In this document: positions 3,070 to 44,008 of the stretch, one piece after another
How positions within the stretch are numbered: position 1 is the first letter of the stretch
How the letters are laid out: each line of letters begins with the position of its first letter
DNA from: Nitrospirales bacterium
GTDB taxonomy: Bacteria > Nitrospirota > Nitrospiria > Nitrospirales > UBA8639
Direction of reading: 5' to 3'
NCBI GenBank assembly: GCA_963555755.3
Contig: OY820905.2
Location: 1,216,001 to 1,280,000 of the forward strand
Length of the DNA: 64,000 nt
Position numbers and translations under genes: made by a program
The notes under the pieces: model-generated
Told to the model about the DNA's origin: nothing
Databases searched by the model: none
The model's input: the letters and a program-made list of their open reading frames with translations, nothing else

Positions 3070-3143
3070 AGGGTCAGACAAGATTTATTGAAAAACTATG
3101 GACTCTTTCACCAAAATTCCATATTAATTCGAGTCTGACCCCA
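3070..3143. repeat. Short element bounded by GGGTCAGAC ... GTCTGACCC inverted repeats
   Basis: gggtcagac at 3071 and taattcgagtctgacccc at 3125-3142; 16 nt identical to the intron 5' exon at 38831-38846. Confidence 0.6.
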
Positions 3144-6428: not shown

Positions 6429-6814
6429 GACCGAAGATGGAGCCCGGTCTAGGCAAAACATATCATTACTCCCTTTGCCTAACCCATTTGCCCTGAGCAT
6501 ATCGAAGGGTAAGGGGGGCAGGACATAGGGTAAAGTAGAGCACTGGTGCTCTACTCTACCAAAATTCTGACCCCACATTTGCTTCGCAGCTTTTGGCCGG
6601 GATTCCGGTTCAGTTTCGGAGCCGACACTTCCCCTTTGCCCAGTTCCCCCACTCACACACCGTAATGGAGCGACATGCTGGCCCGATCCTGGGAAAATGG
6701 GCCGGTCAGACCCTCCTCACAGGATGCACCCCCGCATTTCAGACGGCGGAGTCTGCGGATTGCCCCTTCACCGCGTCCTTTGGAACTTTGCTGTTCGGTC
6801 ACACAGGCCTTTCT

Positions 6815-23173: not shown

Positions 23174-23314
23174 GGGCACCTCTAAAAACCAGGCATTTTT
23201 TGTGAGGGCAAGGAAGCCGCGCGCGGAAAACCGGAGTGTATGGGCGAATACATGAGGATTTGAGCACGCGGCTGACGCCGCCATCACGGAAAAGGACGGT
23301 TTTTAGAGGTGCCC
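23174..23314 (+). mobile_element. MITE family B (141 bp, RPE-like), TSD TAAA
   Basis: Terminal inverted repeat gggcacctctaaaaacc; four near-identical copies in the window. Confidence 0.9.
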
Positions 23315-24318
23315 TAAAGAATTGAACCAGAGAAGGGGTGATTTCAGGAGAGATTGCTGTGCCAACGCGCAATACCCTGCATGGTACGATCTTGGCGTAG
23401 CCCCACTGGATTGGCAATAATGCGGGGAAATGTCAGATACTCACATACGATTGGAATACTTTGAATCCAACGGACCACCCACCCCTAGTACTGAAAAGGG
23501 AGAGGGTCACGGGTTGAGAGGGTCACGGACTGGAAATCCTCCATCTGGAGCGCGTTGAAATCCATGATGGCATTCAGCCTCCAATCAAGAACGAAACCTC
23601 GCTTGGTTGCAGAGTCATTTCATTTTGGAAGAGACGCTAACTTTCCTTTTTTTGGTCTCTTATGTTATTCTTATGTTATTCTTTTGTTACTCGCCATTTT
23701 GAGTGCTCAATTTTGGTTCATTCAACTCGCAAAAAGCTGTCCGGGAAAAATGACTCACATTTTTAGACAACCTCTTCATTGTTGCCACGTGTAAATTCCG
23801 CCATCCTTGTGGTATCTGGCAGTCGTCCCCTACTCACGACATTGCCCCGGAAACCCGCTGACTGTATTTGAATTTCGATATGACAAGAAGAGGTAAATGC
23901 CAGACTTAGCCTACAGGGATTGCCTGAATGACGTATAGACAATACCCACCAAATTTTGAGAAATGGTTGTATACCCATAATGGGGTACTTACCCCAAACT
24001 TAATGTATTTTTTCAAAATAAAGTTTCTGTGGAATGGCTTTTGATAAAAAAAGGATTTTGTTCAATTAACAGTGCCCTCTACAGTAAAAAATTAATTAAA
24101 AAGAGACGGATTGTAAAATATACCTACACAAGAGGTACAATAGGAAATGAATGAAGGAATACTCCCCCAGGATAAGGAGGAAGACACCACTACGAATGCA
24201 AGGATAGCTACCCAGTGAGGGATGAATTGTGATATAAAGACATTTTTGGGTTGGCTAGAGAAATGGAAGAAACTGTTAATTTCAATAACCATGGAACTTT
24301 TTCAAAGAGGTTTTAGAC

Positions 24319-24822: not shown

Positions 24823-24853
24823 AAACACCCGAAATAGCTTGCTGCAGTATTAA

Positions 24854-24994
24854 GGGCACCTCTACAAACCAGGCATTTTTTGTGAGGGCAAGGAAGCCGC
24901 GCGCGGAAAACCGGAGTGTAGGGGCGAATACATGAGGATTTGAGCACGCGGCTGACGCCGCCATCACGGAAAAGGACGGTTTTTAGAGGTGCCC
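24854..24994 (+). mobile_element. MITE family B, TSD TTAA
   Basis: Two substitutions relative to the other copies. Confidence 0.9.
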
Positions 24995-26056
24995 TTAAGG
25001 GAACTTAAGGGAATATGGACGTCTAATTTCTGTGGTGGCCGCCACCTTAGTGGATACGCGAACACCCCCTTTTCTTTTCAGGTATTTTCCCACCGGGTAC
25101 AAGCCAGGTTAAAGATTGTGACAGCACCCCTATGGGTGATTCATTATCTAGGAATCAGCTTTTCTAAAACACTATGAACCCGCCCGTTGGCACGCCATCT
25201 GGGTAGCAAAACAACGAACTCGATCACCGACTGAGTGAGCACCCAAAATTCCCAAGAGGCCATTTCATGGTCCAAAGCGGCATGGAACCTTAGTCGTGTG
25301 GTATCCTGGGATGGGCGGCCTGTTGGACATGAAAGCCGTCGTTCTTTCCAATGATACCCTCAAAGTTCAGTTTGATTTCGACCACCCGAAAGATTGCCGA
25401 ATGGCCTATGCGACGTTGGTTGAAAAACCTCAATTTGTGATCGGGACACTAGACGCCTTTGGAGAACGGACATTTTTCTACCTACCTCACAATAAAAAGC
25501 ACCCTAACCCTCGTTAGATCGCCACTGACGAAAGGAAGGCCCACACGGACCATTTCTTTTCATGCAATCCCAATTTTCTCGGATTGTTGGCCAGACTTTC
25601 CTCCCTCCAAGAGATTTATTTTCCTTCTGAGTTTTTCAGGACACTTCCAATAGAATTGAGACTCCGCTATGGGCTGGTGACACCCTGTACACAATATTAT
25701 ATTTTCTGGAACTCATTCTGGTGGTTTTTCAAAATTTTCCTCAATAGAGATAATTGGCCCTATAAATAAGTATAAAGTACATCTAGAAGATACGCGTTAA
25801 AGGCAGTAGGCTTGAGAGAATCATCACCTTGAATTTTTCAAGGAGGCTTAGCATCTTGTAAATTTTTATTTTGTAACGTGGCAAACCTCTTTATTCATAG
25901 ATAGGGTCAATGGTGCAATAGGTATTACGCCCTTATTCGACCATTTCATAAGGTGCATCATTTCGCCATGTTTTTTGAAATAGGGCCAAATAAATAAACC
26001 TAGCTTCATCAACATCTGTACTAAGAAATTTATTCTTTCAATTGGAATGAGTTAGG

Positions 26057-32242: not shown

Positions 32243-33267
32243 TGAAACACCGTACGGACTTCCTCCGAATTTGGGACAATCCTCAGACAGAAGAAGTGGG
32301 AGACTCCGTCGAAGAATTTCTTCATCTTCTTGGCGGACCAACCTGGATCGACATTCCCGGCAAGGATCCATCACGGTCTCGCGCCATTGTCACATTGCTT
32401 CACGGCAATGAACCTTCAGGGATTCGGGCCATTCATCAATGGCTTCGCATAGGCCACACCCCATTCGTCAATGTCGTCTGTTTCATTGGAGCAGTTGAGG
32501 CTGCCCTCGCCCCTCCTGGTTTTGCCTTTCGGACATTGCCAGGCTGCCAAGACCTGAACCGGTGCTGGCAAGAACCCTATGATAGTGTCGAGGGGCATAT
32601 TGCCCAAGCAGTCCTCCAACGATTCCAGCGCTTCAACCTGGAAGCCCTCATTGACCTTCACAACACCTCAGGACACAGTCCCTGCTACGGCATTACCACC
32701 CAAATGGGCGACAAACAGAAAGCACTCACCGCGTTGTTTTCCAGTCAACTGGTCGTCACCGATTTACGATTAGGGTCAATCATGGAAGCCACCGAGTTTG
32801 TGACTCCCACTATTGCGGTAGAATGCGGTGGAAATCACGACCAACAATCTGATCGCATGGCCTTTGACGGATTGACTCGATTTACCCAAACAGACTCTCT
32901 CTTTCCTCCAGGGAAGGAATATCCAGACATCTCGGTCTTCGAGCATCCGATTCGCGTTGAACTTCGAGAAGGCGCCACCGTGGCCTATGCATCTTCACCA
33001 GTAGAGGAAGCAGATTGTACACTCAGATTTGATGCCGACAATTTTAATTTTGATCTACGGCATCCAGGAGAACAGATTGGATGGGCCGGGCCAAACCAAC
33101 TGGATGTCTTCTTGGCACGAGACGCAAAAGGCCACAATCGAACCAAGGAACTCTTTACCGTGCTCAACGGCCAACTGCATATCACCCAACCGGGAAGAAT
33201 CCTCATGATGACCACCGACCCCATTATGGCCACAAGCGATTGCCTCTTTTACGGGCCTGTAAGATAA
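32242..33267 (+). CDS. Succinylglutamate desuccinylase/aspartoacylase (M14) family protein; last codons supplied by the IS256 end
   Basis: LHGNEPSG, DLNR, IDLHNT and VECGG; translationally coupled to the GCS2 gene. Confidence 0.85.
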   Translation: MKHRTDFLRIWDNPQTEEVGDSVEEFLHLLGGPTWIDIPGKDPSRSRAIVTLLHGNEPSGIRAIHQWLRIGHTPFVNVVCFIGAVEAALAPPGFAFRTLPGCQDLNRCWQEPYDSVEGHIAQAVLQRFQRFNLEALIDLHNTSGHSPCYGITTQMGDKQKALTALFSSQLVVTDLRLGSIMEATEFVTPTIAVECGGNHDQQSDRMAFDGLTRFTQTDSLFPPGKEYPDISVFEHPIRVELREGATVAYASSPVEEADCTLRFDADNFNFDLRHPGEQIGWAGPNQLDVFLARDAKGHNRTKELFTVLNGQLHITQPGRILMMTTDPIMATSDCLFYGPVR

Positions 33268-34582
33268 ACTGTGTAACTGGTATCATGACGGATCCATTGA
33301 ATAAGGAGGACTGATGACCAGAGCCAAGACCCCAAGCAAAACCGATGTGCTGTTAGATGAGCTATTGGAAGGGTGTGCGTCACCCGAAGACATATTCGGC
33401 AAACATGGGCTGGTGAAGCGTCTCACGAAACGGCTCGTAGAACGCGCCCTGCGGGCAGAACTGACCGAGCATTTGGGCTATGCCCCTCATGCCCCTGAGG
33501 GCCGTGGATCCGGCAATGCCCGCAATGGGAGCACGTCGAAAACGGTGCAAACGGCCCACGGGGATCTCCCGCTCCAGGTGCCCCGTGATCGTCAAGGCCG
33601 CTTTGAGCCGCTGTTGGTGCCCAAACGCCAACGGCGCTTGGAAGGGTTTGATGAGAAGGTCCTGGCGTTGTATGCCCGAGGGCTGACGACTCGCGACATT
33701 CAAGGGCATCTGGAAGAACTCTATGACGTGGAGGTGTCGCCCACGCTCATTTCGGCCATCACTGATGCGGTGTTGGAGGATGTGCGCATCTGGCAGAGTC
33801 GGCCCTTAGATGCTGTGTATCCGATTCTGTACTTCGATTGTCTGTTTGTGAAGTCTCGGCAGGAGGGCGTCGTCAAGAATAAAGCCGTGTATGTGGCCTT
33901 AGGGGTGAATCTACAGGGCGAGAAAGAACTCCTGGGGCTCTGGATCAGTGAGACCGAAGGGGCCAAGTTCTGGCTGTCGATCTTCACCGAACTCCAGCAG
34001 CGCGGGGTCCGGGATTGTTTTGTGGCTTGCGTCGATGGGCTGGGGGGCTTGCCAGAAGCCTTGGAGACGGTGTTCCCACACACCCAGGTGCAACTGTGCA
34101 TTGTGCATAAGGTACGGCAATCCTTGCGGTATGTGGTGTGGAAAGAGCGACGAGCCGTGGCGCGGGATCTGCGAGCCCTCTATGGCGCCGCGACGTTGTC
34201 GGAGGCGGAAAGCGCGTTGGAGACATTTGCCGCCAGGTGGGATGCGAAATATCCGACGATCAGTGCGACGTGGCGACGGCATTGGAGTCGGCTCACGATC
34301 TTTTTTGATTATCCCCCAGAAATCAGGAAAGCCATCTATACCACCAATGCGATCGAATCGGTGAATTTTTCGTTACGCAAAGTCCTGAAAAGTCGGGGAG
34401 CCTTTCCGACAGATGAATCAATTCTGAAGGTGCTGTATTTAGGGATGCAGCGGATTGCGAAGAAATGGACGATGCCCATTCCGCACTGGAAGCGGGCTCT
34501 CAACCAATTCGCCATGCTCTTAGGAGATCGAGTGCCAACAATCTAGCCCACAATTCAGTTACACAGTTAACTTGACAAGCCC
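33253..34582 (+). mobile_element. IS256-family element
   Basis: 26-bp imperfect terminal inverted repeats (gggcctgtaagataaactgtgtaact / agttacacagttaacttgacaagccc); flanks not duplicated. Confidence 0.92.
33314..34546 (+). CDS. IS256 transposase, apparently intact
   Basis: VPRDRQGRFEP, YPILYFD, CVDGL, QLCIVH and YTTNAIES. Confidence 0.95.
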   Translation: MTRAKTPSKTDVLLDELLEGCASPEDIFGKHGLVKRLTKRLVERALRAELTEHLGYAPHAPEGRGSGNARNGSTSKTVQTAHGDLPLQVPRDRQGRFEPLLVPKRQRRLEGFDEKVLALYARGLTTRDIQGHLEELYDVEVSPTLISAITDAVLEDVRIWQSRPLDAVYPILYFDCLFVKSRQEGVVKNKAVYVALGVNLQGEKELLGLWISETEGAKFWLSIFTELQQRGVRDCFVACVDGLGGLPEALETVFPHTQVQLCIVHKVRQSLRYVVWKERRAVARDLRALYGAATLSEAESALETFAARWDAKYPTISATWRRHWSRLTIFFDYPPEIRKAIYTTNAIESVNFSLRKVLKSRGAFPTDESILKVLYLGMQRIAKKWTMPIPHWKRALNQFAMLLGDRVPTI

Positions 34583-35094
34583 CTCGTCCCTGCCTCCCAT
34601 GTTGATCACAGCCTACAGCCAGTAGGGCTCCTTTGCTCCACAGGCATTACCCTGCTTCCTCGCTCCTACGAGCCCCTCCGCCACCCTCTCGTCTTCGACT
34701 CACTTCCCAGAGAGCTGGTTATAGAGCCGATCTTCCTCCAGGGATTTCTCCCTGGGACGAGGAGGGCTTCTCCCGTTGCGTCGTCTGTCCTTGCTCCCGT
34801 GCTGTCGCTCTCACCCCGCCGGAGTGGTCAGGCGTCTCAGCCCTATTTCGCCTGCCCATGCCGTCTTCGTCCTACGGTCAGGGACTCGACCTCCGAGGTT
34901 CCGTACTTTCGAGGCTACCTCTGCGTTCACTTGCGTTACGGCCCGGGAACTCGCTCACCATCCTCTACGATGGCTTTGTCGATGGGCTTCAGCGTCTCGG
35001 TTTCTCTCCACGCTGCCATCCAAGCTACAGGGCTCAGGCTCTTACCCTGGTGGGCTTGCTTCCCACTGAACAGACTCACCTTACCTGGACACAC
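34583..35094 (-). ncRNA. Group II intron 2: 5' part (DI-DIII, start of DIV), truncated by IS256
   Basis: GTGTG 5' end at 35094; ggccgtaacgcaagtgaac motif shared with intron 1; EBS1-like stem-loop gtcc-ctgaccgta-ggac; DIII-like ggcggaggggctcgtagg...ggagcaaagg. Confidence 0.8.
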
Positions 35095-35114
35095 AACCGT
35101 GCATGCGGTTTTCC

Positions 35115-36975
35115 CAAGCCGTTCACTTAATCTGTTGACACAAACCAGCAAACAGACATAAACAGCGCTTGTTTGCTGGCTTTCTTGTTTTGGATCATGC
35201 AGAAAAAATCTTCCGCAACTTCTACGCTGAAGCACCCTCGGATACCGCTCGAGTACGGTGGCTTCCAGATCAACCACTGCAAGTCTCCGGTCTGCTCGAA
35301 CTACGGCGTTCCGCCAGAACACACATCGGTGCGTGGAAAAAATAGCTACACTCTGGATTCACGCAACCAAGGCATTTCATCCTGTATCTGCACGTCCTGC
35401 GGCGAAGGATTCCCTCTCAAGAGCAACCTCGGCATCGCAGAAGAAGTCGAGCGCATGTCGGCCTACCTGTCGCCTCGTGAGGTGGCGTTCTGCCGTAACG
35501 ATGCCTGTACCAATCATACCGGTCAGGTGCCCGTAGGTACCGCTGGGGCATATGCCTCGTTCGGCAAGACCGCGATTGACAGCCCCCGCTGGCGCTGTAG
35601 CGTCTGCGGTACGACGTTCTCACAGAACACCAAGGCCACCGCCCGGCAGCGGGAACATCACAAGAACAAGACCATTTTCAAACTGCTGGTCAACAAGATG
35701 CCCGTGCGCCGAATCATCGAAGTCGCCGACATCCACCCCAAGACCTTCTACCACCGCCTCGACTTCCTCCATCGCCAGTGCCAATCATTTGCCGCCCACC
35801 GCGAGCACGCCCTATCCACCCTCCCCATTCGGCGACTGTACCTCGGCGTGGACCGGCAGGACGACCTTGTGAACTGGATGGTTCGCAAGGACAAGCGCAA
35901 CATTCAGCTATCGGCCATTGCATCAGTGGACAACGAACACGGTTACGGCTTCGGTGTCCACCTTCACTTCGACTCTTCTCTGGACAGCGAAGCTGTCCAA
36001 GCCGAAGTCGAGAAGAGCGGCGACCTTGGCATGCCCTATCCGCATCGTCGCGTTGCACGTCTGTGGCTCACTGCAGACCATGAGCGAGCCAGTGCCAAAT
36101 CCCTACGCACTTCGCGGCGCAAACCCGGACTGCCAACGCAGATCGATGAAGCCTATGCCGCAGCATTGATGCGTGACGATATCGAAAGCCCTGATGCGCC
36201 GTCGCCCGTAGAACGACTTCCTGAATACGGGATGCCAACCCATGGCGAGTACACCATGTCTGGGCATTTTTTCTTCCTCAAACGCCTGCTGGGCAATGTC
36301 CAAAAGTGGCGCTTCTTTATCGACCAAGACCCTGGACTGCGAGCCGCGTGCCTATCGGCGTTCCACGACGAGATCCGAGGCCGCACGGCGGATGCCTTCT
36401 CTGTTCGCATCACCAAAGATCTGACGGTGGACGAAAAGCGTCAAAAATACAACGAAGCGACGATGCTGTTCGTGCACGCAGAGCTCGCGCACCCAAAGAT
36501 GAAGCCGCAGGAGGTCAAGTTGCTGCTGATCAAAGAGCGTCTGGCCTGTATGACGCCGCACGGGAAGTGGCAGGATCGGTGGCTTGACCATCCTTTCCCG
36601 ACCATGAGCGAGCCAGAGAAGACAGTGGCCTACCTCACCAATCTGGGCGACTACGACGAAGAACACAAAGCTTGGCTCTACAACAAAGCGAGCGTGCATG
36701 GTGTCGATTCGTTCTTCAACCAAGTGCGTCGACGGCTCTCCCTGCTGGAGCGTCCGATCCATTCCAAATCCAACAATGGTCGGATATGGAACGGATATTC
36801 TCCATATAACCCGGGTAATGTTGCAAAAGTACTCGACATCATGCGCACGGTGCATAACTACATCCTGCCCGGCAAGGATGGCAAGACGCCAGCTGTGCGA
36901 CTTGGATTGGCCCAAGCGCCGCTGGACTACGAAGACATTATTTATTTTGCATCAACAGATTAAGTGAACGGCTTG
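35115..36975 (+). mobile_element. IS element (IS1/IS1595-related, family uncertain) inserted in intron domain V
   Basis: 24-bp perfect terminal inverted repeat caagccgttcacttaatctgttga; 9-bp TSD cggttttcc (an 11-bp reading is also possible). Confidence 0.9.
35197..36963 (+). CDS. Transposase with two Zn-ribbon modules
   Basis: CKSPVC, CTSC, CRNDAC and CSVC; HTH region; C-terminal KTPAVRLGL; fills the element. Confidence 0.8.
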   Translation: MQKKSSATSTLKHPRIPLEYGGFQINHCKSPVCSNYGVPPEHTSVRGKNSYTLDSRNQGISSCICTSCGEGFPLKSNLGIAEEVERMSAYLSPREVAFCRNDACTNHTGQVPVGTAGAYASFGKTAIDSPRWRCSVCGTTFSQNTKATARQREHHKNKTIFKLLVNKMPVRRIIEVADIHPKTFYHRLDFLHRQCQSFAAHREHALSTLPIRRLYLGVDRQDDLVNWMVRKDKRNIQLSAIASVDNEHGYGFGVHLHFDSSLDSEAVQAEVEKSGDLGMPYPHRRVARLWLTADHERASAKSLRTSRRKPGLPTQIDEAYAAALMRDDIESPDAPSPVERLPEYGMPTHGEYTMSGHFFFLKRLLGNVQKWRFFIDQDPGLRAACLSAFHDEIRGRTADAFSVRITKDLTVDEKRQKYNEATMLFVHAELAHPKMKPQEVKLLLIKERLACMTPHGKWQDRWLDHPFPTMSEPEKTVAYLTNLGDYDEEHKAWLYNKASVHGVDSFFNQVRRRLSLLERPIHSKSNNGRIWNGYSPYNPGNVAKVLDIMRTVHNYILPGKDGKTPAVRLGLAQAPLDYEDIIYFASTD

Positions 36976-37007
36976 CGGTTTTCCCGCACACGGCTTTCCG
37001 ATGTTCT

Positions 37008-38342
37008 TCATGTCAAGGCATGCGCCGAGCGCCAGCCCGCTACCGTAGGAACCTTATAGAGCCCGTAACGCTCATACAGATCGGCCTGCGGGAAACGACG
37101 TAAGCCGGTTCCCCTGTCCTTGATCTTGTGGCGTTTCATCAAGTGGGTTCGCAACCGGTCTTCCGCGTGAGTTTTGACCTTGCTCATCGTCACACTTGAG
37201 TTCCGATAGTGGAAGTAGTTCACCCAGCCGCGGAGGCTGCGGTTGACCGTTCCCACGAGGTCGCTCAAGGCAATGGCGGTCAGGTCCCGTTGTGTGAGTT
37301 CCGTCAGTCTCGCCTTGATCTTCTTCAACGAGGTGTCTGCCGGTCGAACATTCGGGTACGGCTTTCCAGTCGCCCCTCGACTCATCTGCAGCGTAAAACC
37401 CAGGAAGGTGAAACTCGCTTCGGTCGCGTCCACGATGTGGGTCTTGGCCTCGTTGAGACTCAGGCCCAGTTGGTCCAGTACGTGGCGCACGACCTTTAGC
37501 GGTTCCTCTACATCTTTTCGACACATCACGACAAAGTCATCTGCGTAGCGCACCAAGTGCGCGTGCAATGTATCTTTGCCGTGTCGCCGTTGCCAGGTTC
37601 GATCCAGAATGTGCCGGTAGCAGTTAGCCCGCAGCGGGGAAATCACTCCGCCTTGCGGAGTCCCCGTGCGGTTGGCTTTCCCGCCGCCTACACTTTTCCG
37701 GGTGCCGTCCGCGTCGTTGCCAATAACCGGGGCTTTGAGCCATTGCTTGATGAGGCGCAGGATGCCCCCATCCACAATGCGCTCGGCAACCACGGCCAGG
37801 AGTTTGGCATGCGGGATACTGTCAAAGTACTTCGACAGGTCGGCGTCGATGACTGGGGTGTAGCCGGCCCAGAGCGTCTTGGCAATGTCGTCCACCGCAT
37901 CATGGGCCGATCGCTTGGGCCGGAATCCGTACGAATTCGCACAGAAGTCGGCTTCAAAGATCGGCTCGATGATGAGCTTGACGGCCATTTGCGCCACTCG
38001 GTCTCGGATCGTCGGGATCCCCAGCGGACGCAGCCTACCGTCCGCTTTGAGTCTCATGACGCGCCGCACCGGTTGGGCTCGGTAGGTCTTGGCTTGCAGA
38101 TCACGGGCCAATTCCCTCAGAAACGTGTCTACCCCGATTCCACTCTCTATGGCCTTGAAGCTGATCCCATCACTCCCGGGGCTGCCTCGATTGGCTCGGA
38201 CAAGCCGCCAGGCATGATTGAGGATATCCTCCTGGCTGATCTTGTCGTAGAGGGCGTACAAGCGATAGGCCGGTTCTTGCTTGGCCTTGGCATACAGCTT
38301 CCTCGGCAGCGTCCTGATCGTCTCCGGGGTGGTTAGCGCCAT
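37008..38342 (-). CDS. ltrA: Group II intron reverse transcriptase/maturase without an endonuclease domain, decaying
   Basis: RPLGIPTIRDR, SYGFRP, DADLSKYFD, GTPQGGVISP, RYADD, FLGF and LRGWVNYF. Confidence 0.93.
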   Translation of the reverse strand: MALTTPETIRTLPRKLYAKAKQEPAYRLYALYDKISQEDILNHAWRLVRANRGSPGSDGISFKAIESGIGVDTFLRELARDLQAKTYRAQPVRRVMRLKADGRLRPLGIPTIRDRVAQMAVKLIIEPIFEADFCANSYGFRPKRSAHDAVDDIAKTLWAGYTPVIDADLSKYFDSIPHAKLLAVVAERIVDGGILRLIKQWLKAPVIGNDADGTRKSVGGGKANRTGTPQGGVISPLRANCYRHILDRTWQRRHGKDTLHAHLVRYADDFVVMCRKDVEEPLKVVRHVLDQLGLSLNEAKTHIVDATEASFTFLGFTLQMSRGATGKPYPNVRPADTSLKKIKARLTELTQRDLTAIALSDLVGTVNRSLRGWVNYFHYRNSSVTMSKVKTHAEDRLRTHLMKRHKIKDRGTGLRRFPQADLYERYGLYKVPTVAGWRSAHALT

Positions 38343-38941
38343 GGCAATCCCCTGATCCTCCGCTCTTCGGTTGCATGAACACAGCAGGGTTCCTTCCCTC
38401 GACCGGGGTTGTGTGGTCCCTCGGCCTCACGCGGTACGATGAACCCCTCCGACTCCCGTTCCGGGCCGCTGTGATTTCGTGGCCTTCTACACAGTGGTCG
38501 GTGGCCTCCCCACCCCCACAACGGGTCTCCAGCACTGGGCGATACGTCTTCCAGAACATGCCGTCCTTGCTACCCCGGGAGTCGAGGGATGCCACTTCCG
38601 TTATTCCAGCACCCTTCCACCGGCCTTCCCCTTCTGACCACAGGGTCGGCGTCTCCACTTTCATGTACGAGGCTACTCATCGGTTCACTTGCGTGACGGC
38701 CTGCTCTTTTGCTGTGGGGAAACTGACGACCCCGTGTGACCACGACGCCGCTTCCTCATACTACCAAGGTGTACGGACAATTCCTTGGACGGGACTTTAA
38801 CCCGCTAGACATACTGCTGTTACTGCGAACGGTCAGACTCGAATTACATCTCCACGTTTTATCATAAGGCGAAGCCAACCAAAGGGGAAAAGGGGGCGCA
38901 ACTGATACCTGTTCATTCTGCAAACTACCAAACGAAAGAAG

Positions 38942-38996
38942 AATATTGGTGCCCCCGAGACGATTTGAACGTCCGGCCTACGGTTTAGGAAACCGT
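38942..38996 (-). repeat. att site: 55-bp duplicate of the tRNA-Arg 3' half
   Basis: Identical to 43927-43981. Confidence 0.92.
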
Positions 38997-39358
38997 AACC
39001 AGCTCAATCTCCCCTTCGACGAAACACCGCCCCAGAAGCGGAAACCAGTTGATTGATCAATGAGTTAGGTCTGCCAACGAAGTTGCACTGAGTTGCGTAG
39101 GGTGTGAGGGGTGTGAGACCTGGCGGTTACAAAAAAGGTTACACTTTAATACGGTGGCCCTTCACCTAGGCCCGCCATCGCGGTCTTGTTTATGAACACG
39201 GTCACTCGATGAAATTCAGCTGTACTGGCAGCCTTCCATAACCCTCGAAATTCGCTCCCGCAAAAAGTCGATCCCCACAATTGTTCCGTTGGGGTGCCAA
39301 TGTCCGGACCCCTCATAGCACACTTGCTATTTTTCCAAATTGGCAATAGTAGGTAAGA

Positions 39359-39517: not shown

Positions 39518-39925
39518 GGGGAGAAACTAAATAAGTCAATACTCATGCCTGACCCTACTTCCAAGGGCCAGGTCTCTTAGGCCACTAGCCGTAGCCAAAA
39601 CTTGGACCATTCTTTATGAGAAAATCCGCTACACTAGGCCCCCATTTAGAAGGGAGGATGTGCCATCTTTTGACAGTCCCACGGAAAGCTGCTTCGGGTT
39701 ATTAAATTTTCAGCAAGGAAAACCGATAAGAAAACCGGAAACTAGTTGAGTCAGAGTATAGGTGGAGGGTCATTATAAAACGATGGGTTCAGCAATGATG
39801 TAAAGGATCTCTATCAAGGTAGTAATTCGAAAATCACTGGTCTTCCGTTGATTTTGCTGGGAGAGCCAGGTTGCTCTCAGTTGTAAGGGAAATCCTAAGC
39901 GAATGAATAGTATAGGTGTCTTTTG

Positions 39926-43113: not shown

Positions 43114-43926
43114 CATGCTGTGCGGTTACAATTGATTCCGTTCTTCGGCAAGAAGCCACTCAATGAAATTCTCCCAGAAGATGTGGAAACCTATCGCGCA
43201 CAAAGAATGCGTCGAGATGGACGAAAGCCCAGTCTTGGAACAATTAACAATGACCACATTATCCTCAAACATGTGTTTAGTGTGGCAGAACGGCGTGGGC
43301 TGGTGATGATTAACCCTGCCAAGAAAGTGCCGATTCCTGATACGAATAACGAACGTGATAGGGTATTAACTGAGGATGAGTGGCACAGGCTCTATGAGAC
43401 AGCAGCACCCCACATTCAGCCAATTCTTTTAATTGCCTACCGACTTGGCCCACGTCTCGGTGAGATTATGAAATTGACCTGGGATCGAGTGGACCTTAAA
43501 CGGGGGTTTATTAAGTTGCGGGGTGTGGATACGAAGACCAAAGAGCCGCGTCTGGTTCCGCTGACTGACGATACTCAAAAGTGTTTGGGCGAACTGGCTA
43601 AGGTGCGGAGTTTAACAACAAATCGTGTATTCTTGTACGATGGCAAGTCCATTGATGAGATCAAGCATGCGTTCAAAACCGCCTTAAAACGTGCTGGAAT
43701 CAAGGATTTCTGTTTTCATGACCTGCGACACTGTGCTGCTACTAATCTTAGACGGGCAGGAGTAGATACTGTTACTGCAATGAAGATTGTAGGGCACAAA
43801 TCTGAGAAGATGCACCGACGCTATAACAGTGTCAATGAAGACGATTTACTACGAGCCATTGCCAAAATTAACACCGTAATAACACCTGCCGTTTCTACCG
43901 ATTCCACGACCGCTGTAAGTGCTTGA
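43114..43926 (+). pseudogene. Tyrosine integrase lacking its N-terminus
   Basis: R.GEI..LTW, TKT, FHDLRH, VGH and RY motifs; begins at the IS256 boundary. Confidence 0.88.
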
Positions 43927-43931
43927 AATAT

Positions 43932-44008
43932 TGGTGCCCCCGAGACGATTTGAACGTCCGGCCTACGGTTTAGGAAACCGTCGCTCTATCCACCTGAGCT
44001 ACGGGGGC
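43932..44008 (-). tRNA. tRNA-Arg (anticodon CCT)
   Basis: gcccccgtagctcaggtggatagagc-acggtTTCCTAAaccgt-...gttcaaatc...gggggcacca; 77 nt with CCA end. Confidence 0.95.

Follow-up and report, generated by a model that had tools for sequence, protein, structure and literature searches.

Class F/g4 group II introns probably home to the terminal inverted repeats of TIRYT transposase elements

Known hiding places of group II introns are attC sites, IS genes, other introns and the DNA downstream of terminators. Class F is said to have been defined by Simon et al. in 2008. The intron analysed here most resembles the class F/g4 introns of the Pe.ca.I3 clade (Toro and Martinez-Abarca 2013, PMC3552965), which are about 1990 nt long and encode an RT-X protein of about 445 aa without an endonuclease. 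In the available parts of that paper, no target site, EBS analysis or 5'-end sequence is given for g4, and the locus is blank in 8/8 g4 rows. RmInt1 of Sinorhizobium meliloti (class D) is similar in that it also has no endonuclease and prefers the lagging-strand template (PMC8914252, PMC8643678), and in that it homes into another mobile element, ISRm2011-2 (PMC1802570). However, RmInt1 as described there is one intron with one IS target, whereas the g4 case concerns a whole clade and the end motif of many families of terminal inverted repeats (TIRs). Introns of class IIC, including the IIC-attC introns, share with g4 a clade-wide preference for dispersed non-coding sites and a short IBS1 (PMC7923331, PMC8919778). 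In the accounts of IIC introns a DNA stem-loop replaces IBS2, whereas the g4 introns need no hairpin and combine an EBS1 of 5-6 nt with a short EBS2 and a class F protein. Finally, certain IS elements also land on repeats associated with HUH transposases (PMC1525189), but that case, so far as the available text goes, involves DNA transposons and REPs, while the g4 case involves a retroelement, RNA-encoded recognition and TIRs.

On the side of the target, TIRYT elements (TIRtrons) are described as Y1 HUH transposase genes lying between TIRs with a GGGGWSAS motif (PMC3733652, PMC6006769). Copies of the TIRs occur as singles, dimers and clusters (Di Nocera 2013, PMC3733652), and TIRYT corresponds to subclass 2.1 of Quentin 2018 (PMC6006769). 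That TIRYT proteins cleave or move TIRs is a proposal made in PMC3733652. The term "intron" is absent from the accessible text of PMC3733652, and "group II intron" from that of PMC6006769. In the accessible papers searched, we found no group II intron tied to TIRYT, RAYT or REP ends. The intron class, the target elements and homing to dispersed non-coding sites are each known; we did not find the pairing of this class with these elements described, and it appears to be new.

The window is a stretch of 64,000 nucleotides from the genome of a Nitrospirales bacterium (G000, C1:1216001-1280000). The intron and the elements that interrupt it occupy the following positions in the window.

36975-38830, minus strand: class F/g4 group II intron, from its GTTCG 5' end through the first half of domain V
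37008-38342, minus strand: intron-encoded RT/maturase of 444 aa (Pfam RVT_1 and GIIM)
38633-38639, minus strand: EBS1 loop GGTCAGA, pairing to the 5' exon through its first 5-6 nt
38660-38663, minus strand: EBS2, short and weak, suggested by covariation; partner at exon positions -10 to -12, here also -13
38570, minus strand: candidate EBS3, a G for the C at +1, from a single compensatory case (L125)
35116-36974, no strand assigned: IS1-like element within intron domain V, with a 596-aa ORF on the plus strand, TIRs and an 11-bp target duplication
35095-35115, minus strand: duplicated target and second domain V piece of the intron
34584-35094, minus strand: second group II intron (5'-terminal 512 nt), inside domain V (Rfam RF02003)
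33252-34583, plus strand: IS256-family element at the end of the nest

The hallmarks of a group II intron are present: the domain I structure, domain V, an AY 3' end and an RT/maturase in domain IV. Rfam RF02005 matches the window intron at 38563-38798 with 63.4 bits. An intact copy of 1972 nt at C1:3675077-3677048 is 95.7% identical to it (blastn); AC is the 3' end of the intact sister copy, domain V being interrupted in the window copy. Another intact copy is located at C1:176541-174569. The 444-aa protein scores 367.8 against TIGR04416 (cut-off 300), and Pfam finds RVT_1 and GIIM only, with no endonuclease domain (D/En). Two odd substitutions near conserved motifs, seen in comparison with homologues, suggest that the window RT/maturase is decaying. 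We assign the intron to the endonuclease-less class F/g4 because a locus in Nitrococcus mobilis (L099), 71% identical to the window protein, has a 162-aa frame and measures 728 nt (636+9+83) between the point where homology begins and the 3' end, which are exactly the lengths listed for the N. mobilis g4 fragment in Table S2 of PMC3552965 (162 aa, 728 nt); the match is indirect but exact in length. A 223-aa g2 fragment (L103) is 36% identical to the window protein.

A sequence-only reading made earlier had noted that the intron starts with the non-canonical GTTCG. This start is present at 38830, and an empty orthologous allele confirms the boundary, give or take a one-base slide. GUGYG is found at the start of 0/75 homologues (GTTCG 46, GTACG 20, GTATG 7, GCCTG 1, GTTCA 1) and of 0/17 copies in the genome itself (GTTCG 5, GCATG 12). 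Judged from these sequences, the missing GUGYG is a deviation of the whole clade and no reason to exclude it from the group II introns. The 75 homologues and 17 genome copies document a lineage that never uses a GUGYG 5' end.

Three nested elements interrupt the window copy. The rest of the second intron, followed by the end of domain V, domain VI and the 3' exon CCAAATT, lies at C1:9684-11267 and beyond, and this displaced 3' half adjoins an IS256 copy 99.85% identical to the one in the window. We read the split as an IS256-mediated rearrangement. In a genome of the same genus (G006) and in the metagenome runs X8 and X10, which are runs of one study, the window 5' exon runs straight into CCAAATT, the 3' exon that the displaced half carries in its own genome. 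Compared with this empty allele, the insertion at the window locus is precise and made no target duplication. In another genome, G007, an intron is present at the orthologous site. A paralogue of the window 5' flank at C1:15826 (85% identity over 165 nt) contains no intron, and its bases at -6 and +1 are G and T, a single case that fits the pairing rules given below.

The interrupting elements have a distribution of their own. The 596-aa ORF of the IS1-like element has no Pfam match, and its NCBIfam IS1 score of 31 bits is far under the cut-off of 100. Other copies lie at C1:775533-777392, 1024326-1026155 (end at 1026916) and 3058591-3060450. In 4/4 copies the insertion site is domain V of a group II intron, with an 11-bp duplication, and both intron families are hit; the element seems to be an IS aimed at the catalytic hairpin of introns. 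The second intron has about a dozen genome copies and sits in domain V of g4 introns, with up to three in tandem at C1:2160017-2165998. Its intact copies encode an FADD-type protein, FADD being given as a g2 signature in PMC3552965.

The 5' exon of the window intron and the related sites in the window are as follows.

38831-38846, minus strand: 5' exon, a solo TIRYT-type TIR end (IBS1 at 38831-38836; weak IBS2 at about 38840-38843)
3071-3142, no strand assigned: empty TIR-dimer mini-element of the TIR family of the window exon, with a degenerate left end at 3071 and an intact right end at 3125-3142
39531-39555, plus strand: empty TIR of another TIRYT family, the L004 type, with 18 exact copies of its last 17 nt
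6527-6575, no strand assigned: remnant, two intron 3' ends back to back and then TGACCCC, read from the sequence

The 16-mer TAATTCGAGTCTGACC occurs at 38831-38846 (minus strand) and at 3125-3140 (plus strand, followed by CC). The sequence-only reading had reported this identity, which holds, and the genome has 3 copies of the 16-mer against 0.002 expected. It had also placed the second copy, with its CC, in an inverted-repeat mini-element, and the surroundings are indeed an inverted dimer of 72 bp with 3125-3142 as its right end. The site at 3125-3140 is empty, but it is a paralogous TIR of the family and not the empty allele of the locus. The window exon belongs to the TIR family of a TIRYT locus about 4 kb past the end of the window (L005), whose left end is intact and whose right end is degenerate, both of this family. 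Within 2 kb no inverted partner of the window exon was found. The L004-type family holds an intron copy in run X13.

As for the target motif, a dispersed TCTGACC repeat had been proposed, together with a comparison of its frequency with chance. The bare 7-mer is hardly enriched (605 copies in the genome against 483-547 expected) and precedes only 4/17 genome copies of the intron. The 12-mer TCGAGTCTGACC, by contrast, has 30 copies against about 0.5 expected from order-3/4 Markov models, an enrichment of about 60-fold. The repeat is therefore real but longer than the 7-mer, and it consists of several TIR families with a common end motif rather than of one repeat. The hexamer TGACCC occurs 35 times in the window and thus carries little meaning by itself. 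Among the related motifs listed earlier, the one at 39550 is a true TIR and the one at 3071 is the degenerate partner in the dimer, whereas those at 2001, 23504 and 23520 are single-copy, with no TIR signs found. The motif near 6566 (at 6568) turned out to be the TGACCCC that follows the remnant of two intron 3' ends, and the palindrome at 6527-6575 has the form that a deletion between two outward-facing introns would leave.

The genomic sequences indicate that the intron sites are TIRs, of the GGGGTCAG type, of TIRYT HUH-transposase elements and scattered copies of these TIRs. There are 17 PF01797 matches in the genome. Its TIRYT proteins retain the HUH and Tyr motifs and carry the Y1 HUH class 2 signature (Y---NP), with a DnaA-like HTH tail in the long forms; the tails of seven TIRYT loci match the DnaA C-terminus. 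The best profile match of L005 is REP_Tyr_transpos with 72 bits, under the cut-off of 80. Inverted repeats of the form GGGGTCA...TGACCCC border the long PF01797 loci, with TIR pairs flanking L003, L004 and L006-L009, and a TIR pair was found at 11/19 Y1 loci examined in other genomes. The variants GGGACGG and GGGTCGG seen here widen the published GGGGWSAS consensus. A search for adjacent Y1/RAYT-like HUH transposases, suggested by the sequence-only reading, thus has an answer: the motif-bearing ends are the TIRs of TIRYT Y1 genes. Short tandem copies of the TIR tip and its flank often lie beyond the TIR ends (L006-L009, L011, L013), and such tandem copies also occur in the 3' exons at C1:228296 and 2159894; they are a possible footprint of TIRYT activity.

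Seventeen intron 5' ends were found in the genome (5 GTTCG, 12 GCATG). The 5' exons of the other copies, which were to be compared with that of the window, are related and not unrelated, with YTGACC preceding 17/17 ends. The loop GGTCAGA is conserved in 15/15 copies that reach EBS1. At the 3' ends, C follows in 18/18 and CC in 16/18. Two apparent occupied sites, C1:4045972 and 2484704, resembled the intron start over 8 nt by chance only, and we removed them before counting. Seven GCATG-type copies (C1:2357, 1381885, 1691099, 2166640, 2226040, 2543602, 2586075) match the intact copy only in the first ~570 nt and the 3' end and are apparently ORF-less derivatives.

Homologues in other genomes were used to examine the pairing between RNA and target. 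Three sources supplied 161 loci: species genomes searched by protein (80 loci), metagenomes scanned with a domain I pattern in which EBS1 and the exons were unconstrained (80 of at least 120 loci), and L109. Of these, 83 had domain I matches, 78 were usable and 75 had distinct exons. Their record titles include Beta-, Gamma- and Deltaproteobacteria, Nitrospira, Chlorobiaceae and Dehalococcoidales. The domain I pattern had 0 matches in viral contigs, and 1 in 60 relatives, too few for a co-occurrence test. YGWCC ends 62/75 foreign exons, with 13/75 deviating, and C stands at +1 in 38/39. Watson-Crick pairs between EBS1 and IBS1 occur at positions -1 to -5 in 71, 71, 67, 74 and 72 of the 75, respectively, and at -6 in 46. 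Position -7 pairs in 22/74, no more than after shuffling (p 0.39), and IBS1 is therefore 5-6 nt. The EBS1 loop at 38633-38639 had been correctly located by the sequence-only reading, but the 7-nt pairing with TCTGACC that came with it is ruled out by the -7 counts, and only 5-6 nt pair.

EBS1 and IBS1 vary together. The combination GGTCA/TGACC was found 42 times, and the compensatory combinations GGACA/TGTCC, GGACG/CGTCC and GGTCG/CGACC were found 9 times, 5 times and once. The same four variant types are the TIRs around Y1 genes in 3/4 other genomes examined. In G062 the exon of the intron has 11 more exact copies, several of them beside Y1 genes. On the intron tree the changes recur, with only 4 well-supported independent pairs (p 0.125). 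L125, a g4 intron with 58% protein identity, has a wholly changed EBS1 that matches an unrelated target and is a useful natural control. At the position of window 38570 it carries T, and its +1 base is A; the other rows have G in 72/73. This position is probably EBS3, a weaker call than EBS1.

For EBS2, the idea that there is none whatever was dropped once a 3-nt covariation diagonal emerged at -10 to -12. The observed and expected numbers of Watson-Crick pairs on the diagonal were 41/24, 39/16 and 31/17 (n=68), so that 111/204 cells, about half, were paired against ~57 expected. The 6-bp EBS2-IBS2 pairing of IIB type was not found, the diagonal being of 3 nt only. Introns with identical domain I loops carry different exons. 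The 3-nt pairing, less secure than that of EBS1, may tune a copy to a TIR family.

With these sequences in hand, we regard it as very probable that TIR ends are the target of the clade. We also regard it as probable, with somewhat less confidence, that the g4 intron homes to one exact spot in the TIRs of TIRYT elements in a fork-dependent manner, by means of short pairings and protein readout. The main alternative is loose targeting followed by selection: the intron would insert at any YTGACC/C, genic insertions would be purged, and the TIRs would merely supply intergenic sites. The firm pairs number only 5-6 plus 1, and group II introns generally hide in mobile elements (as discussed in PMC7306698), both of which fit such a process. 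To compare occupied with empty sites, we called a site TIR-like if it had at most one mismatch over -13 to -6 to a TIRYT-flanking or empty-dimer end. The genome has 1533 empty YTGACCC sites, 949 covered by ORFs under a crude mask (ORFs of at least 150 aa) and 584 intergenic, and 225 are TIR-like. Only 38/949 ORF-covered sites are TIR-like. Since TIRs already make up about one third of the intergenic sites (187/584), selection contributes to the site pattern. Nevertheless, the enrichment persists against intergenic sites alone: 14/17 occupied sites are TIR-like (Fisher p 4e-5), or 16/17 against 245/584 when two mismatches are allowed. With the seven TIRYT-flanking ends as the sole reference, the numbers are 11/17 against 133/584 (p 3e-4). 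These p-values overstate independence because six genome copies have the same TIR family exon. The earlier suggestion that the ends of a multicopy element serve as homing sites is supported by the 14/17 and by the recurrence of the same variants in other genomes.

The flank of the motif points in the same direction. With a matrix built on 74 foreign exons (positions -7 to -20), the occupied sites of this genome were distinguished from its non-TIR YTGACCC sites with an AUC of 0.92-0.95, so the TIRs are picked out by a signature learned on other genomes. The same matrix did not separate occupied from empty TIRs (AUC 0.56). Moreover, across bacterial groups the EBS1 variants follow the TIR variants. 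If the intron lies in a TIR, the interior of the element lies on its 5' side, and the TIRYT gene and the partner TIR are therefore expected there. A TIRYT gene was found in 10/62 foreign 5' flanks (7 long matches, 3 short fragments) against 0/35 3' flanks; the controls were 0/27 for non-g4 introns, several of them from one genome, and 6/1000 for random windows. At 52/62 foreign loci the TIRYT gene is absent within 2 kb. L050 and L072 have TIRYT matches 3' of the intron, 29 and 1467 nt away, and both loci were left uncounted as they come without 5' end or EBS1. An inverted partner was found in 12/71 5' flanks against 1/36 3' flanks, with ~1 expected. At L060, L068, L182 and L186 the intron lies within one TIR of a complete TIRtron. 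The predicted side thus holds the partners and the genes, and loose targeting with selection is, in our judgement, unlikely to account for the whole pattern.

How the intron enters the site is suggested by its strand. With the origin placed by GC skew at 2.71 Mb or by dnaA at 2.92 Mb, and the terminus at 0.57 Mb, 15/17 intron copies are in the lagging-strand template orientation (p 0.002). The empty TIRs lean the opposite way, with 71/225 in that orientation (56/170 with clusters collapsed) and 1/21 in the L004 family. In the mechanism that we propose, the intron RNA would reverse-splice into the single-stranded lagging-strand template at the replication fork, and reverse transcription would be primed at the fork, as for RmInt1. 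The choice of site would fall to short RNA-DNA pairings together with the intron protein, which is predicted to read the TIR flank by recognising the purine-rich -8 to -10 and the A/T-rich -13 to -17. We infer the protein readout because the base pairs alone match ~1500 sites.

The TIRYT transposase might instead assist homing, by binding or nicking the TIR and so providing single-stranded DNA or a priming 3'-OH. An intron without endonuclease does require a primer, the TIRYT proteins retain their HUH and Tyr motifs (compare PMC6006769), and the insertion site is at most two bases from the outer end of the TIR. However, a fork-dependent process would be expected to give the strand bias of 15/17, which is opposite to that of the empty TIRs, and 2 occupied sites belong to a TIR family without a match among the seven TIRYT-flanking ends of this genome. 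TIRYT assistance may occur but is superfluous for explaining the data, and we give it even less credence than loose targeting. We lean towards fork-dependent homing without TIRYT help, less firmly than we hold to the TIR target itself.

Recognition of a hairpin in the IIC manner, with paired TIRs folding in single-stranded DNA and the intron inserting at the base of the stem, is very improbable. TIR dimers do form long stems, and an upstream partner is present at 12/71 foreign sites, but paired TIRs are not preferred (5/17 occupied against 59/225 empty, p 0.78), which disfavours this reading; in addition, the window's own site is a solo TIR and the intron, with its short EBS2, is outside class C. 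Hitchhiking, in which a few old insertions were carried as cargo by moving TIRYT elements, could be argued from the six genome copies with the same TIR family exon, but it is largely refuted by the occupation of at least six TIR families, the precise empty allele, the splitting of the terminal G-run of the TIR by the intron and the reappearance of the preference on many branches of the intron tree.

Returning to homing into TIRs, the exact spot is the YGWCC/C site two bases inside the apparent outer end, where the intron cuts the G-run. The benefit to the intron would be an abundant and mostly intergenic target pool carried by many bacterial groups. The intron family itself is found in many bacterial groups, and the TIRs are likely a plentiful and harmless landing pad; in the sense of fitness they would be a "safe harbour". 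A bolder and doubtful extension makes the whole g4 clade a dedicated parasite of TIRYT elements, with an EBS1 co-diversified with the TIR variants of different bacterial groups, a short EBS2 tuned to TIR families and perhaps exploitation of TIRYT binding or nicking at the TIR end as a source of single-stranded DNA or a primer. As insertion splits the terminal G-run, the TIR ends would then be disabled by the intron. If this were true, it would be a conflict between a retroelement and an HUH element, and the contrary strand bias seen in empty TIRs might be a mark left by it.

The end motif of poorly understood HUH transposase elements, read with few base pairs, is a new sort of clade-wide target. 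A first mobility assay of class F/g4 introns could thereby start from a defined natural target. The finding also raises the question of how a protein without a DNA-binding/endonuclease region selects ~225 of ~1500 matching sites. The one fixed position of the intron in TIRYT ends can be compared with the TIRYT cleavage site.

Two other features of the window were observed. Another inverted-repeat mini-element is present in two copies, at 23183-23317 and 24845-24997, with the ends GGGCACCTCTA...TAGAGGTGCCC. A tRNA lies at 43935-44008, and part of it is repeated as a 55-nt duplicate beside the 5' exon of the intron, at 38950-39000. An integrase ORF is located at 43120-43926, and the whole is probably a 5-kb integrated element.
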